NCBI GenBank assembly: GCA_964507955.1
Contig: CAZDRR010000002.1
Coordinates: 2,665-54,851 of the forward strand
DNA length: 52,187 nt
From: an uncultured Candidatus Saccharibacteria bacterium
Lineage (GTDB): Bacteria > Patescibacteriota > Minisyncoccia > Phycocordibacterales > JAACPR01
Direction of reading: 5' to 3'
Made by a program: the position numbers and the translations under genes. How positions within the stretch are numbered: the first letter of the stretch is position 1; every line of letters begins with the position of its first letter. A model generated the notes under the pieces. The model was not told where the DNA came from and did not search any database. It saw only the letters and a list, made by a program, of their open reading frames with translations. Positions 15,361 to 20,750 of the stretch are shown here, piece by piece.

Positions 15361-15399
15361 TTGTGTTCCTTTTTGCTATATGCTAAAAATACTACACAT

Positions 15400-17532
15400 A
15401 TGACAAAACACAATATCTGGAGTATTTCCATTATCGGATTATTATTTGCCTTATTATTTACACCACTTGTGGTTGCAACTAGTTTATATTTTCCATATGT
15501 AACTGGAAAAGTTTTTACTTTTAGAATAATAACAACAATTGCAATGATTTTGTGGCTTATTCTTATTGTTAATAAGCCACAATTTTTGCCTAAAAAATCT
15601 TGCATCATTACTGTTGCTGGACTATTTGTATTATGGCTAGCTATTGCGAACTTTTTTGGTTCAGATATACAAAATTCATTTTTTTCAAATTTTGAGAGAA
15701 TGGAGGGTTGGTTCACACATTTATATTTGTTTGTCTATCTACTTATTCTTTCTTCAGTGCTTCAGTCTGAAAAAATTTGGAGTTGGTTTTTGAATACTTC
15801 TATTGTCGTTGCGAATATTATCGCTTTGAAAGCAACCTTTGACTCACAATTAAGAACACAAGTTTTTTTGGGAAACTCGACATATGTTGCTATTTACATT
15901 CTATTTAATCTTTTCTTTACAGTATTGTTTTTATACAGATTAATTAAAAAGAAAACCAAAGAAGATGCATTAAAATATTTTGGGATTATTTACTATATTT
16001 CTTCAATTATTTTATTCGTGTATGTTATTTTTAGAACTCAAACCAGAGGTACTGTTCTTGCATTAGTTTTCTCTTTTATTCTATTTCTTATTTTATCCGC
16101 GATATCTTATTGGAAAAATAAAAAAGTAAGAATTGTAGCAAGTATACTTTTGATTGTGGCCATTGCTGGTTCTGTGGTGTTTTGGCAAAATCGTGATATT
16201 GCTTTTATTCAAAATAATCCATTACTTGCTAGAATCGCAACAATCTCGGCATCAGAAGGTACTGGTAAGGCTAGACTTGTTAACTGGGGTATTGCAATAG
16301 AGGGTATAAAAGAAAATCCTGTAATGGGTTGGGGACAAGAAAATTATTCTCGTGTTTTTGCACAAAAATATAATCCTAATATGTATGCGCAAGAGCCTTG
16401 GTTTGATAGAACACATAATGCGTTTCTTGATTGGACTATTCAAGGAGGTTTGATTGCATTATTGCTGTATATCTCTCTATTTATTGTGTCTATATATTTA
16501 ATTAAAACTTCTTCTTCATTACATAAGACTGATAAAAATATATTAGTGTCTCTTATTGTAGCGTATTCAATTCATAATATATTTGTATTTGATAATTATT
16601 CGAGTTATTTGATGTTTTTCACTTTGCTTGCGTATATCGTCTATCACTCAAATAAAGGAGAAATCAAAATATTTGACGACAAAAAGAATATTCAAGCCAT
16701 TTCAATTTTTATTGGAATTCTAATTGTTGTTGCTTCTTATTTCACAATTAGCAAACCTCTTTTGGTTGCTAATAATCTTATTGATGCACTTTCTGAAAAA
16801 GATCAAGCTAAGTCTTTAGATATATATGAAAAAATTATTAATAAAAATAGTTTCGGTAATACAGAAGTAGGGATACGACTTATGACTGAGGTACAAAAAT
16901 ATTTTTCTATTGATGATCCAAAAGTTATTCAACGATATGTTGATCTTACTACAAAATTAGGTAATGAATTTGAAAAAACAGACGACGTGAGAAGATTAGA
17001 AACATACGGAGGTTTTCTGATGCAGATAGGGGATGTTCAATCATCAATTCGAGTATTAGAAAAAGCAAAATCCCTTGCACCTAACAGACAGAATAACCTC
17101 TATACTCTTGGGATGACATATATAAATGCGAATAATCTTGATAAAGCAAAAGAAGTTTTTAAACAGGCATATGAGGTTCAAAAGGAAAATGATAGAGCAC
17201 GAACATATTATGGGGCTGTGCTATTGTTGTCTGGAGATAAAAGCGGAAGCGAATTAATAAAAGGATATTCAACAAAAGATGGATTCTTCCTTTCTATATT
17301 TTCTAGATTAAAGCAATATAAAGAAGTAATAAAGATAAGAGAACAAATTAAAAAAGATAATCCAATGGATTATCAAAATCAAGTTTCACTTGCTGTTGCA
17401 TATTATCTAGATAAACAAACTGCAAAAGCAATCTTAGTAATTAAAGATGTACAAAAAGCTGTTCCAGAGTTTAAACAACAAGGAGATTATCTAATAAAAG
17501 AGATGCAAGCAGGGAGGAATATAATTAAATAA
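15400..17532 (+). CDS. O-antigen ligase / O-oligosaccharyltransferase-family membrane protein with C-terminal TPR-like repeats
   Basis: About 12 TMs; TQTRG, ARLVNW...IKENPVMGWG.EN, DRTHNAFLD (Wzy_C motif); helical TPR-like C-terminus. Start moved to ATG 15400. Confidence 0.85.
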   Translation: MTKHNIWSISIIGLLFALLFTPLVVATSLYFPYVTGKVFTFRIITTIAMILWLILIVNKPQFLPKKSCIITVAGLFVLWLAIANFFGSDIQNSFFSNFERMEGWFTHLYLFVYLLILSSVLQSEKIWSWFLNTSIVVANIIALKATFDSQLRTQVFLGNSTYVAIYILFNLFFTVLFLYRLIKKKTKEDALKYFGIIYYISSIILFVYVIFRTQTRGTVLALVFSFILFLILSAISYWKNKKVRIVASILLIVAIAGSVVFWQNRDIAFIQNNPLLARIATISASEGTGKARLVNWGIAIEGIKENPVMGWGQENYSRVFAQKYNPNMYAQEPWFDRTHNAFLDWTIQGGLIALLLYISLFIVSIYLIKTSSSLHKTDKNILVSLIVAYSIHNIFVFDNYSSYLMFFTLLAYIVYHSNKGEIKIFDDKKNIQAISIFIGILIVVASYFTISKPLLVANNLIDALSEKDQAKSLDIYEKIINKNSFGNTEVGIRLMTEVQKYFSIDDPKVIQRYVDLTTKLGNEFEKTDDVRRLETYGGFLMQIGDVQSSIRVLEKAKSLAPNRQNNLYTLGMTYINANNLDKAKEVFKQAYEVQKENDRARTYYGAVLLLSGDKSGSELIKGYSTKDGFFLSIFSRLKQYKEVIKIREQIKKDNPMDYQNQVSLAVAYYLDKQTAKAILVIKDVQKAVPEFKQQGDYLIKEMQAGRNIIK

Positions 17533-17533
17533 C

Positions 17534-17561
17534 TTGCATTATTCTAAAAGTGTGATACTAT
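17534..17561 (+). promoter_or_regulatory. Sigma70-type promoter of small RNA 1
   Basis: TTGCAT(17534)-N16-TGa-extended TACTAT(17556-61); +1 predicted at G17568; overlapping TATAAT at 17559-64 is an alternative. Confidence 0.7.
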
Positions 17562-17567
17562 AATCTT

Positions 17568-17637
17568 GTGAGTGTTGGTATATCCAACTCCACGAATGTC
17601 TGCGAAAGAGCCGCTCTAGAGCGGCTCTTTCGTTTTT
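17568..17637 (+). ncRNA. Candidate small RNA 1 (about 70 nt: 35-nt unique part plus terminator)
   Basis: Promoter upstream, imperfect hairpin GUGAGUGUUGG-UAUAU-CCAACUCCAC, then 30-bp palindrome and U5; no credible ORF. Confidence 0.6.
17603..17637 (+). terminator. Intrinsic terminator, perfect 30-bp palindrome
   Basis: cgaaagagccgctct|agagcggctctttcg followed by ttttt. Confidence 0.85.
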
Positions 17638-17657
17638 AGAAAAATAAATAATTTAAT

Positions 17658-17709
17658 TACAAAAAAATAAAAACTTTCTATTAAAATAGAAAGTTTTTAT
17701 TTTTTTGTA
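17658..17709. terminator. AT-rich perfect 23-bp inverted repeat, likely 3' end signal of RNA 2
   Basis: tacaaaaaaataaaaactttcta-ttaaaa-tagaaagtttttatttttttgta. Confidence 0.65.
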
Positions 17710-17787
17710 TGAACTCTATGAACCGTCGGGTGCCAACTCCAAGTGAATGCCTAAGTGAGTGCAGCCGACGGTTCATAGAACTCACAC
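17707..17787 (-). ncRNA. Candidate hairpin small RNA 2 (81 nt)
   Basis: On the minus strand 23 contiguous pairs including 3 G-U (these are A/C mismatches on plus), C-C mismatch, 3 more pairs, 27-nt loop; the promoter places +1 at the first base of the stem. Confidence 0.7.
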
Positions 17788-17793
17788 AAATAT

Positions 17794-17821
17794 ATTATAT
17801 GTGAATAAATTTTTTTTACAA
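17794..17821 (-). promoter_or_regulatory. Sigma70-type promoter of small RNA 2, with TTATTCACA DnaA-type box in the spacer
   Basis: Minus strand TTGTAA(17821-16)-N16-TATAAT(17799-94); TTATTCACA at 17808-17800. Confidence 0.7.
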
Positions 17822-17937
17822 AAATGTTATTAAAGTATTTTTTAATAAAATTTTATTTTTTAAAAATAAAAAAACAAAATATTTTTTAAAATTATTTTTT
17901 AAAAAATAAAAATAATTTTTTTTAAAAATTTTTTTAG

Positions 17938-17946
17938 TTATCCACA
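17938..17946 (+). promoter_or_regulatory. Perfect DnaA box within an extremely AT-rich tract
   Basis: TTATCCACA; preceding 120 bp (17821-17940) has 4 G/C. Confidence 0.5.
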
Positions 17947-18061
17947 AAATTATTTTTAAAAAAATTGTTTTAATTTTTTTATGAGAGAAAATAATAATAG
18001 GTAATAATTAATTCAAGTCGAAATTATTACTTATAATTATAGGTAATTATTTTTCAAAAAA

Positions 18062-18175
18062 ATGCCAGCAAAAAAGAAAGCAGCAAAAAAAGTTGCTAAG
18101 AAAAAAGTAGCAAAGAAAGCAAAAAAAGCTACAAAAAAAGTTGCTAAGAAAAAAGCAACAAAGAAGCGAAAATAA
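18062..18175 (+). CDS. Histone H1-like Lys/Ala-rich mini-protein (37 aa), missing from ORF track
   Basis: MPAKKKAAKKVAKKKVAKKAKKATKKVAKKKATKKRK*; TATAAT at 18032-37 upstream and terminator just downstream. Confidence 0.85.
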   Translation: MPAKKKAAKKVAKKKVAKKAKKATKKVAKKKATKKRK

Positions 18176-18182
18176 TTTCTCA

Positions 18183-18212
18183 GAAAAACCCATACGAAAG
18201 TATGGGTTTTTC
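18183..18212 (+). terminator. Intrinsic terminator, GAAAAACCCAYAC family copy 1
   Basis: gaaaaacccatac-gaaa-gtatgggtttttc. Confidence 0.85.
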
Positions 18213-18242
18213 AATAATCTGTAATTATGCTATATTTGCACC

Positions 18243-20750
18243 ATGAAATTTTTACGTAATATATTTGCTGATCAGAATACAAAAACCCTTAAAAAGTACT
18301 ATACACTCGTGGAGAAAGTAAATGCTTTTGAACCTGATATAGAAAAACTCTCAAATGAAGAACTAAAAGCAAAAACTCTTTATTTTAAGTCTCTTTTAAA
18401 TGAAGGAAAAACACTAGATGATATCTTGCCTGAGGCCTTTGCTGTTGTTCGAGAAGCCTCAAAGAGACTTTCGGGAGAAAGACATTATGATGTACAACTT
18501 ATTGGAGGAATGATTATACATGATGGAAAGATTGCTGAAATGAGAACAGGAGAAGGAAAAACACTTGTTGCAACATTGCCAGCATATCTTAATGCGCTTG
18601 CAGGTAAGGGTGTTCATGTTGTTACTGTTAATGATTATCTCGCAAAGAGAGATGCAGTTTGGATGGGGCAAATTTATGATTTTCTTGGATTGAGTGTAGG
18701 TATTATTAATGGTGATCAATCATATGTATATACATCTCAAAAAGAGAACGAAGAAATTGATGAAGAACGAGACGAAGAGGGTTCATATAATGTTATTGAT
18801 GAATTTTTAAAAAAAGTTTCTCGTGTTGAAGCATATAAAGCAGATATTACATATGGGACAAACAGTCAGTTTGGTTTTGATTATCTAAGAGATAATATTG
18901 AATATCAAAAAGAAAATATTAGACAAATTGAACATGCATTCGCGATTGTTGATGAAATTGATTCTATTTTGATTGATGAAGCGCGAACACCACTTATTAT
19001 TTCTGCACCATCAACCGATCCTGAAAATTTATATAAAGTATTTTCACAAATTGTTTCTACATTTGAAAAAGAAACAGACTATACTGTTGATGAAAAACAT
19101 AAAGCTGTCCATCTTACCGATTCTGGTATAGAAAAAGCTGAGAAAGCTTTGGGAGTTGAAAGTATTTATACAGAAAAAGGAGTTAAATATGTTCACCATC
19201 TTGAAACTGCCGTAAAAGCACATGCCTTATATAGAGACAATAAAGAATATGTTGTACGAGACAATAAAGTAATTATTGTTGATGAGTTTACAGGAAGGCT
19301 TCAACCAGGAAGAAGATGGTCTGATGGTATTCATCAAGCTATTGAAGCAAAAGAAGGTGTTCAAATAGAGCAGGAATCTAAAACTTATGCATCTATTACA
19401 TATCAAAACTACTTTAAGATGTATAAAAAACTTGCAGGTATGACAGGAACAGCGATGACTTCATCTGAAGAATTTTTTAAGGTGTATCTTTTGGATACCG
19501 TTGTTGTTCCAACACATCGACCAATACAAAGAATTGACAGAGATGATCTTATTTTTCAAACAGAAGAGGGTAAATTTAGAGCAATAACAGCAAAAATAAA
19601 AGAATTAAACGCAAAGGGACAGCCTGTACTTATTGGTACTGTGTCTATTGAAAAAAATGAAATGCTTTCTGCATTTTTAACAAAAGAAGGTATCAAACAT
19701 GAAGTGTTAAATGCAAAAAATCATGAAGAAGAAGGAAATATTATTGCACGAGCGGGTCATAAAGGTGCGGTAACAATTGCAACAAACATGGCAGGGCGAG
19801 GAGTTGATATCAAGCTTGGAGGCGTTCCTTTTAATAAGGAAGCTTATGAAGAAGTAAAATCATTAGGAGGAATGTTTGTTATTGGTACAGAACGACATGA
19901 AGCAAGAAGAATTGATAACCAGCTTAGAGGTCGTTCCGGACGACAAGGAGATCCAGGAGAAACACAATTTTATGTTTCAATGACAGATGATCTTATGAGA
20001 ATTTTCTCAACTGATCTTGTAAAAAATATGATGGGAAGACTTGGAATTCCTGAGGATCAACCTATTCAAAATAAAATTATTACACGTTCTCTTGAGAGTG
20101 CACAAGAAAAAATAGAAGGAATTAACTTTGATTCAAGAAAACAACTTCTTTCATACGATAATGTACTTAATACACAACGAGAGTCTATTTATAAGAGAAG
20201 ACGTGCAATATTAATTGGAGAAAATCAAACTCTTGAAGAAGAATTGAAAGAAATAACTTCACTGCAAACAGATATTAATGATACTGTACAAAAAAAGATA
20301 ACTGAAATTGGAAAAGAGAATTTCATGCAATTGTTTAGAAGATTCTTACTTCAAAGTATAGATACATTTTGGATTGATCATCTTGAGGCTATGTCTTATG
20401 TAAGATCTGCAGTTGCACTTAGGGCATATGGACAACGAGACCCGCTTATTGAGTATCAAAAAGAAGGAAGAATTATGTTTGAAAATTTAAAAAATGTAAT
20501 TACAAATAGAGTTGTTGCTCTTATACAAAACATAGATGAACAAGGGTTTAAACGAGAGGAAGAACGAGTTAAGGAGGCTATGAAACAAGCACAAAAATCA
20601 GGAGGGAATGATGTTAATGCTTCTATTTCTTCAAAAGAAGATTATGGTAGAAACGACTTAGTTACTCTTATTAAAGATGGTGTTGAACAAGTTATAAAAT
20701 ATAAGAAGGCACAAGACCTGTTATCATCTGGTTGGGAAATTAAAAAATAA
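18243..20750 (+). CDS. secA: Preprotein translocase ATPase SecA
   Basis: MRTGEGKT, VTVNDYLA, DEIDSILIDEARTPLIIS, ATNMAGRGVDI, RRIDNQLRGRSGRQGDPG. Confidence 0.98.
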   Translation: MKFLRNIFADQNTKTLKKYYTLVEKVNAFEPDIEKLSNEELKAKTLYFKSLLNEGKTLDDILPEAFAVVREASKRLSGERHYDVQLIGGMIIHDGKIAEMRTGEGKTLVATLPAYLNALAGKGVHVVTVNDYLAKRDAVWMGQIYDFLGLSVGIINGDQSYVYTSQKENEEIDEERDEEGSYNVIDEFLKKVSRVEAYKADITYGTNSQFGFDYLRDNIEYQKENIRQIEHAFAIVDEIDSILIDEARTPLIISAPSTDPENLYKVFSQIVSTFEKETDYTVDEKHKAVHLTDSGIEKAEKALGVESIYTEKGVKYVHHLETAVKAHALYRDNKEYVVRDNKVIIVDEFTGRLQPGRRWSDGIHQAIEAKEGVQIEQESKTYASITYQNYFKMYKKLAGMTGTAMTSSEEFFKVYLLDTVVVPTHRPIQRIDRDDLIFQTEEGKFRAITAKIKELNAKGQPVLIGTVSIEKNEMLSAFLTKEGIKHEVLNAKNHEEEGNIIARAGHKGAVTIATNMAGRGVDIKLGGVPFNKEAYEEVKSLGGMFVIGTERHEARRIDNQLRGRSGRQGDPGETQFYVSMTDDLMRIFSTDLVKNMMGRLGIPEDQPIQNKIITRSLESAQEKIEGINFDSRKQLLSYDNVLNTQRESIYKRRRAILIGENQTLEEELKEITSLQTDINDTVQKKITEIGKENFMQLFRRFLLQSIDTFWIDHLEAMSYVRSAVALRAYGQRDPLIEYQKEGRIMFENLKNVITNRVVALIQNIDEQGFKREEERVKEAMKQAQKSGGNDVNASISSKEDYGRNDLVTLIKDGVEQVIKYKKAQDLLSSGWEIKK

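Follow-up and report, generated by a model that had tools for sequence, protein, structure and literature searches.

A lysine-rich micro-gene ahead of secA

The DNA considered here, referred to below as the window, is a stretch of 52,187 nucleotides (nt) of contig CAZDRR010000002.1, from the assembly of an uncultured Candidatus Saccharibacteria bacterium (GCA_964507955.1). Between a gene for a Wzy_C/TPR membrane protein (15361-17532) and secA, which begins at 18243 and is read from the same strand, lies a micro-gene of 37 codons. Its product, MPAKKKAAKKVAKKKVAKKAKKATKKVAKKKATKKRK, is more than half lysine (54%, with alanine contributing another 24%): its composition is K20 A9 V3 T2 R1 P1 M1, it has neither acidic nor aromatic residues, and inspection of the sequence finds KKVAKKK twice and no hydrophobic segment or core. 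The Lys/Ala-rich composition, the lack of acidic residues and the repeated KKVAKKK had already been pointed out in a preliminary description of the locus, and all are correct on recomputation; the calculated mass is 4105 Da (3974 Da should the initial Met be cleaved off ahead of Pro), the net charge about +20 and the isoelectric point 11.7. Among the 14,276 small open reading frames (ORFs) of the 1.15-Mb assembly this one ranks first in lysine content, and it is the only stand-alone Lys/Ala-rich small ORF there; it exceeds chance expectation. Judged by the signals that surround it and by its conservation, the micro-gene is a real, separately transcribed and translated unit, although its translation in vivo is something that we infer. 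The elements of the locus, in window coordinates, are these:

18062..18175, plus strand: micro-gene ORF including the stop codon, ATG start, 37 codons, product MPAKKKAAKKVAKKKVAKKAKKATKKVAKKKATKKRK
17800..17937, no strand: extremely AT-rich stretch with runs of A/T, ahead of the promoter
17938..17946, plus strand: perfect DnaA box TTATCCACA, forward relative to the gene, 124 nt before the ATG
17965..17998, plus strand: putative promoter, with a -35-like TTGTTT at 17965-17970 and an A/T-rich -10-like GAAAATAATAAT at 17987-17998
17999..18061, plus strand: 5' leader, about 60 nt long, containing hairpin H1 (GGUAAUAAUU/AAUUAUUAC, 17999-18032) and an A-rich stretch before the AUG
18017-18022, plus strand: leader motif GTCGAA, in the loop of H1, an instance of a conserved (G)GTCGR element
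18183..18212, plus strand: intrinsic terminator, AAAAACCCATAC-GAAA-GTATGGGTTTTT, a 13-bp stem (A/U pairs included) followed by a T-run
18208..18236, plus strand: putative secA promoter, with a -35 element TTTTCA overlapping the terminator T-run and an extended -10 element TGCTATATT that ends 6 nt before the ATG at 18243
18047-18214, minus strand: antisense frame of 55 codons, rich in Phe, Leu and Cys

The peptide is predicted by AlphaFold2 to form a single helix (residues 2-36, predicted local distance difference test score, pLDDT, 88.6). No amphipathic periodicity was found in it: the analysis has peaks at 70 and 85-90 degrees, not at 100, and the signal is not significant (66 of 1000 shuffles).

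The frame is under selection

Is a 37-codon frame in A-rich DNA a gene at all? The alternative is that it is a chance frame, a small non-coding RNA, or the shadow of an antisense frame. The genome is AT-rich, antisense frames are open too, relatives are absent from hidden Markov model (HMM) searches, and the 5' part of the transcript is structured, all of which lend that alternative some color; antisense frames, however, are open only because AAA/AAG reads TTT/CTT backwards. Against it stands the way in which the frame has changed. The version of the gene in another genome of the same genus (G005; 36 amino acids (aa), flanked by the same two genes) differs by eight substitutions, every one of them a synonymous third-position change in the plus frame, and by a single indel, which is one whole in-frame codon. 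Over eight independent close pairs, differences at the first, second and third codon positions number 22, 26 and 110. The start ATG-CCN-GCN-AAR and the frame are kept in loci of up to about 46% G+C (GC). Promoter and T-run polarity also agree with the plus strand.

The choice of lysine codons is informative in its own right. The AAA:AAG ratio tracks the GC content of the locus (14:6 at 30% GC, 6:21 at 46%) while lysine is retained, so that AT richness does not account for the abundance of lysine. When AAA and AAG are permuted among the unchanged lysine positions, 22.6 +/- 2.6 of the 66 coding sequences acquire an A-run of nine or more; of the real sequences none has one, and none of 500 shuffles had as few. 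The summed longest A-runs come to 392, against 473 +/- 10 in the shuffles. Long poly(A) tracts cause ribosomes to slide and polymerases to slip, and the order of synonymous codons therefore appears to have been selected for readability of the frame. Taken together, these comparisons say that the micro-gene is a conserved protein-coding gene whose peptide is under selection, and we give the non-coding and antisense alternatives very little chance.

Orthologues and their distribution

Relatives were found through DNA patterns and synteny. Searching 41 related genomes with the peptide, and 201 genomes of the order with a DNA pattern that encodes MPAKKK, brought up stand-alone Lys/Ala-rich mini-ORFs in the corresponding position. 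In all, 67 distinct stand-alone orthologues of 15-103 aa were collected from Parcubacteria-type genomes, most of them starting with MPAKKK, at loci whose GC content spans about 28-46%. Within the genus, G002 and G003 carry versions of 40 and 50 aa ahead of secA; in G034, which belongs to another family and whose locus has 46% GC, the product MAKKKKATKAKKTTKKVAKKKSTKRSKKR is encoded between the same membrane protein and secA. The preliminary description had proposed conservation of the frame upstream of secA in Parcubacteria-type relatives as a check on its claim; the frame is conserved there, and the claim is not refuted on that count.

A scan of about 185,000 species for a DnaA box, a spacer and the MPAKKK codons (TTATCCACA-N110-140-ATGCCNGCNAARAARAAR) returned 58 loci where about 0.3 would be expected by our own estimate, and 56 of the 58 are Lys/Ala-rich mini-ORFs of 15-103 aa. 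The records are labelled Paceibacterota, Parcubacteria, Nomura-, Kaiser-, Lipton-, Wolfe-, Gribaldo- and Uhrbacteria, and one of the loci sits in a complete genome (CP174360.1). Two matches, in records labelled Acidobacteria (L074, PDUC01000037.1) and Bacteroidales (L076, CAVTBM010000001.1), have the same box distance and an MPAKKKA start; their frames, which resemble each other, continue Pro-rich (..PPPTIPPIPM..), not Lys-rich.

Prevalence within the order was gauged with a relaxed pattern (GGTCG-N25-55-ATG SCN RNN AAR AAR), with the reversed pattern as control: 75 of the 201 genomes have matches, and matches number 83 as against 26 for the control. Since this pattern misses the genus of the window, where the motif is AGTCGA, true prevalence in the order must be higher. 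In the rest of the phylum the relaxed pattern matches at about background level.

What is held constant across these candidate phyla is the amino-acid composition (on average K 48%, A 24%, R 7%, P 6%, T 6%, V about 6%) and the MPAKKK N-terminus. Length is not: with repeats of the KKxAKK type varying in number, orthologues differ seven-fold.

Promoter and DnaA box

The locus has one perfect DnaA box and one with a single mismatch. At 18 loci that were found independently of the box, a perfect box in forward orientation lies 122-221 nt upstream of the ATG in 15 (122-124 nt in six); among the remainder, G019 has a box with one mismatch (TTTTCCACA) and G010 is situated at a contig end. Anchored on the start of the box, relatives of all lineages display TTGnnn at about +27 nt and (g)ATAAT at about +50 nt, from which transcription in the window would start near 18000, some 60 nt ahead of the ATG. 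The TATAAT that the preliminary description had noticed upstream of the frame does exist, at 18032-18037; with the conserved promoter placed further upstream by the comparison with relatives, it falls within the leader, and it is conserved in the genus only.

The geometry of box and promoter at the micro-gene is that found at dnaB and mraZ of the same genome (identities of dnaB, dnaX, ftsK, mraZ, secA and the upstream neighbour were assigned by Pfam): in the dnaB promoter TTGTAA stands at +28 and TATTTT at +53 from the box; in the mraZ promoter TATAAT stands at +50. Perfect DnaA boxes occur 12-114 nt upstream of dnaB, mraZ, dnaX and ftsK (contigs C53:545, C60 minus, C67 minus and C82:1828), with the box at dnaX overlying the -35 position of a leaderless promoter. 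The boxes at the micro-gene and at these four genes make up a candidate DnaA regulon in a bacterium of the candidate phyla radiation (CPR).

In model bacteria, DnaA-regulated promoters include those of dnaA, nrdAB and others. The micro-gene promoter is like them in having the consensus 9-mer TTATCCACA right upstream of the core promoter; it differs in having a single box, and neither binding nor regulation by DnaA is known to have been described for any CPR bacterium. With DnaA binding assumed from the presence of the box, the micro-gene promoter is probably DnaA-controlled, and its conserved box is a testable case of transcriptional control by DnaA in this group.

The DNA leading up to the promoter is extreme in composition: GC is 0.07 over 17800-17999, and the 60 nt preceding the box are 98% A+T. 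AT-rich tracts precede the box in relatives also, even at the locus of 46% GC, and the tract could be a curved or UP-like element. The combination of AT tract and DnaA box was also considered as a replication origin (oriC) and rejected: a cluster of boxes is missing, there is no GC-skew switch at 18 kb, and dnaA is distant (it is on another contig here, and in three relatives, large or complete, 131-355 kb separate it from the mini-gene).

The leader

The element (G)GTCGR is found 33-51 nt ahead of the ATG in 54 of the 56 scan loci, and it is present in 17 of the 18 loci whose discovery did not depend on the motif. The structure that presents it depends on lineage. In the window the motif lies in the loop of H1 (-6.1 kcal/mol, z = -3.7), a stem that is typical of the genus; the commonest shape elsewhere is a hairpin, P1 (AAGCAGAnnUUCUCUU...AAGAGAAnnnUGC), followed by GGUCGA. 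The P1 type is 77.6% paired, as against at most 57% in slid controls, and six of its pairs are changed on both sides. A covariance model of this commonest leader type (R1) has two confident matches in the order, each followed by a mini-ORF starting MAVAKK...; the R1 shape belongs to other lineages, and only GGTCGR is shared. Rfam places no family at threshold in the window or in one relative's leader.

No Shine-Dalgarno (SD) sequence is seen in the leader of the mini-gene, which is normal for this genome: an SD-like motif precedes only 11% of its genes (6% in a control window). The sole leader with a canonical SD sequence, that of L093, is missing the (G)GTCGR motif.

Two other roles for the motif were tried and discarded. 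As the mark of a regulon, GGTCGA fails for want of enrichment upstream of this genome's other genes; as the -35 element of a leaderless promoter it fails because no -10-like element can be seen by eye ahead of the ATG. In the leaders of L003, L008, L042 and L047-L049 the motif often takes the form (A)GUGGUCGA(A) in a hairpin loop, and contig C21 of the assembly carries a class-II tRNA, with anticodon GGA, whose D-loop is that same string. This match could be coincidence or a D-arm mimic.

The terminator and the question of secA

The preliminary description had given the gene a terminator of its own with a GAAA loop, and this holds up well. The hairpin starts seven nt past the stop codon and folds with -19.7 kcal/mol (z = -7.3; none of 200 shuffles was as stable). 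A strong hairpin with a T-run directly follows the stop codon in all 18 of the first-found orthologues; the stems differ in sequence, so that it is the structure of the terminator, rather than its sequence, that is conserved.

The signals for ending one transcript and starting the next are interlocked. The extended -10 element stands 6 nt ahead of the secA ATG, which would make the secA mRNA leaderless; the same TGCTATAWT element is also found past the terminator in G005, G002 and G184, and many genes of this genome look leaderless, in that a -10-like hexamer lies just before the ATG of 30-36% of genes (14-16% in a control window). As regulatory designs, both this interlock and the near-universal leader motif are compact.

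Could the mini-ORF then serve secA above all, as a regulatory leader or upstream ORF whose peptide has no role of its own? Translation of the mini-ORF, or the stopping of transcripts at its hairpin, would in that case govern how much transcription or translation secA receives. The association with secA is certainly close: the gene follows within less than 600 nt, on the same strand, in 52 of the 58 loci with enough sequence, whereas retention of the upstream Wzy_C/TPR neighbour can be detected in no more than a minority (about 10 of 61); the T-run overlaps the secA -35 element; and the stop codon is only about 0-21 nt from the hairpin. Other features of the locus make such a role for the mini-ORF most unlikely. 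The terminator hairpin accounts for 0.87 of the folding ensemble, with no competing antiterminator structure seen; secA is served by a conserved extended -10 promoter of its own, from which its mRNA would be leaderless; and six loci retain promoter, ORF and terminator without secA. The N-terminus and the composition of the peptide persist across candidate phyla over lengths of 15-103 aa, and a reading of the sequence finds no signal peptide or arrest motif of the kind found in SecM, VemP and MifM. The overlap of terminator and secA-promoter signals by itself provides a simple mechanical reason for the conserved gene order. A variant in which the terminating ribosome attenuates at the hairpin was judged marginal, the stop-to-stem distance varying between 0 and 21 nt.

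Relation to known polycationic proteins

The product of the mini-gene probably acts like the H1-like Lys/Ala-repeat proteins of bacteria, yet it belongs to none of their families. The label "histone-H1-like" that it had been given is apt for its composition; homology to H1, Hc1 or Hc2 is not supported by profile. The window peptide has no match at E <= 10 in Pfam and NCBIfam (the models PF07382, PF07432 for Hc1/HctA and PF00538 included). The only Pfam model that longer members of the family approach is PF07382 (HC2), against which the four longest relatives score 9.6-17.9 bits (E 0.0036-1.2), short of the curated cut-off of 40 bits.

Hc2 (HctB, PF07382) shares with the mini-gene family its short Lys/Ala-rich repeats, the lack of a globular domain, and a length that varies with repeat number (PMC2848022). 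It differs in size (165-237 aa, as against 15-103 aa), and common descent is unsupported; it is also the product of a late developmental gene, whereas the mini-gene has a DnaA-box promoter. Expression of the chlamydial histone-like proteins is under tight post-transcriptional control, HctA being controlled by the small RNA (sRNA) IhtA (PMC3469542), for which the conserved leader of the mini-gene offers a parallel.

The C-terminal domain of linker histones H1 and H5 is similar in having far more Lys than Arg, in company with Ala, Pro, Thr and Val, and in working by charge neutralization. Unbound, the H1 tail is disordered, and it becomes helical on DNA; for the mini-gene peptide a single helix is predicted. 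The winged-helix domain (PF00538) of H1 and H5 is unmatched in the peptide, which is 3-6 times shorter than the H1 tail and whose host is bacterial, without nucleosomes. Kinetoplastids have an H1 that consists of the tail only.

The same repeat chemistry is found in the PAKKA-type tails of actinobacterial HupB/MDP1 and HupS and in the KPAA tails of AlgP and PhaF. These tails raise affinity for DNA (and RNA) and promote compaction, and they are fused to a folded domain, HU or another, whereas the tail encoded by the mini-gene stands alone and HU is the product of a separate gene. From the same lineage come extensions of ribosomal proteins, the C-terminal tail of Parcubacterial uS19 (PMC9297842) and the N-terminal extension of uL23 in this genome, which are of like composition and length (about 25-35 aa); they are covalently part of their proteins, whereas the mini-gene is a separate unit with its own promoter, leader and terminator. 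MPAKKK-type Lys-rich N-terminal extensions have also been noted on RpoD (about 35 aa), RecA and uL23, in L017 (G140), L015 (G173), L027 (G195) and contig C92 of the assembly itself; the same polycationic module thus occurs in fused form too, as a tail of proteins that bind nucleic acid.

Is the peptide one of the small basic ribosomal proteins? Models for bL34, bL36, bS21, bS22, bL37 and bTHX in Pfam and NCBIfam are not matched, although HMM tools are weak on low-complexity sequence; PDB sequences also yield no match at E <= 10. The near-constant length of small ribosomal proteins is not found among the orthologues.

Other searches came back empty as well. A word-indexed search with a 40-aa orthologue as query gave nothing at E <= 0.01, phmmer found no match among 1.84 billion representatives, and a full-text search of the literature turned up no paper on the mini-gene family. 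That profile and sequence searches return nothing is a failure of method on low-complexity sequence and no sign that relatives are absent. The preliminary description was right that the ORF is unannotated: 14 members of the family (23-103 aa), the window peptide and 13 relatives, are all missing from a collection of 15 billion proteins. It was wrong to attribute this to length, at least as far as a hard limit is concerned: the minimum for Prodigal is 90 nt, and the ORF has 114. A family that is conserved over many candidate phyla of ultra-small bacteria escapes gene callers, HMM searches and the protein collection alike, a tangible gap in the coverage of micro-proteins whose composition is extreme.

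What does the peptide bind?

The peptide is best thought of as a polycation that would coat nucleic acid, with chromosomal DNA the most likely target, a reading that we consider to have an even chance of being right. With 37 residues, a charge of about +20 and no hydrophobic core, it would bind to the phosphate backbone without sequence preference, probably forming its helix upon binding. On the chromosome it would neutralize charge, and compact or bridge DNA in the manner of the H1 C-terminal tail, chlamydial Hc2 and the Lys/Ala tail of HupB. Its mRNA would be transcribed from about 60 nt before the ATG, with the DnaA box at about -55 to -63, just upstream of the -35 element; through DnaA, synthesis of the peptide would probably be tied to replication and to the state of the cell cycle, since dnaB and mraZ share this arrangement of box and promoter. 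The structured leader with its (G)GUCGR element would probably add post-transcriptional control, and possibly autoregulation. The preliminary description, which proposed a nucleoid-compaction factor, is supported in part: for the gene, its terminator, its composition and its conservation, but not for compaction as such. The strongest features of the locus, namely the conserved DnaA box, the conserved leader motif and the close linkage to secA, it had missed.

DNA is favoured on three grounds: 1) the composition of the peptide is like that of the H1, Hc2 and HupB tails; 2) HC2 is the one Pfam model that its relatives approach; and 3) its promoter is of a kind common to replication and division genes. 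That Lys far exceeds Arg even in loci of 43-46% GC, that length varies with repeat number and that a single helix is predicted also count for an H1/Hc2-like character. Several considerations weigh on the other side. HU is encoded in the same genome (C54:3241-3510, one copy, 47% identical to E. coli HupA); the peptide is consequently not the only nucleoid protein, and the need for a dedicated compaction factor is not obvious. Lys/Ala-rich tails are also borne by ribosomal proteins, by uS19 in Parcubacteria (PMC9297842) and by uL23 of this genome, which makes RNA an equally natural ligand, and ribosomal-protein genes that are autoregulated typically have a structured leader. Adjacency to secA in 52 of 58 loci is left unaccounted for by a nucleoid role. 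The similarity to H1 and Hc2 is one of composition, not homology, and DnaA binding to the box is assumed.

Might the target be RNA instead? The peptide would then be a ribosome-associated or RNA-associated polycation that stabilizes reduced rRNAs or acts as a general RNA chaperone or condenser, a free version of the Lys/Ala tails of ribosomal proteins. The uL23 extension and the Ala/Lys-rich uS19 tail of about 25 aa that is peculiar to Parcubacteria (PMC9297842) make this attractive, as do the conserved structured leader, reminiscent of autoregulated ribosomal-protein operons, and a promoter architecture that suggests high expression; tails of the MDP1 type condense RNA as well as DNA (PMC13639343). 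A seven-fold range of length (15-103 aa), however, fits poorly with a fixed binding site on the ribosome, no small ribosomal-protein model or PDB chain is matched, the gene lies outside ribosomal-protein operons, and its DnaA box is one that replication and division genes have in common. An RNA target is the main rival, and on this evidence an unlikely one. Quite unlikely, in our estimation, is a bulk counter-ion, a polyamine substitute that neutralizes DNA, RNA and nucleotides with no preferred target in cells that cannot make spermidine. It would sit well with the extreme composition, with a length that is free to vary and with a gene apparently built for high, regulated expression, and a search of this genome, which is 92% complete, found no spermidine synthase; but one enzyme missing from an incomplete assembly is weak evidence, and the conserved MPAKKK N-terminus and KKxAKK spacing suggest something more than bulk charge. 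Polyphosphate granules, which the H1-like AlgP organizes in Pseudomonas, have next to no prospect as a target. The Lys/Ala repeats do resemble the AlgP tail (PMC9239181), but neither PPK1 nor PPK2 was detected in the assembly, and a polyphosphate target was rejected for that reason.

If chromosomal DNA is indeed the target, and if the peptide is abundant, it would probably be a major determinant of DNA packaging in these tiny cells; if it is abundant and acts on the ribosome, the same would hold for the stability of their reduced ribosomes. The chromosomal reading can be pushed further, to a "tail-only" chromatin system in Parcubacteria-type CPR bacteria: a free, H1-tail-like oligolysine helix of 15-103 aa, its synthesis timed to replication by a single high-affinity DnaA box of the kind that would also gate dnaB and the mraZ division cluster, and its level trimmed when the peptide, or another factor, binds the (G)GUCGR leader element. 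This composite picture is an unlikely one as a whole. If it is true, it would be the bacterial counterpart of replication-coupled histone synthesis, and a widespread class of proteins would have been missed entirely by annotation and by the protein databases.

Assembly and upstream elements

The assembly in which the window lies (1.15 Mb in 166 contigs) is large beside its relatives, which have 0.5-0.8 Mb. Among its short contigs are some of 40-43% GC that end in tandem DnaA boxes (C152, C118), and the bin may be mixed, containing more than one organism.

Upstream of the AT-rich tract, at 17560-17790 (and at L002 1930-2110 and L003 1740-1800), are two small structured elements, a short RNA ended by a terminator and an 81-nt hairpin. 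The preliminary description had remarked that the micro-gene is co-located with the sRNA pair; so it is, but no evidence was found of a functional link, and no pairing between the upstream elements and the leader of the mini-gene is evident. Both elements are kept in G005 with compensatory changes in their stems, and a string from them, CCACGAATGT, is also present in G034.

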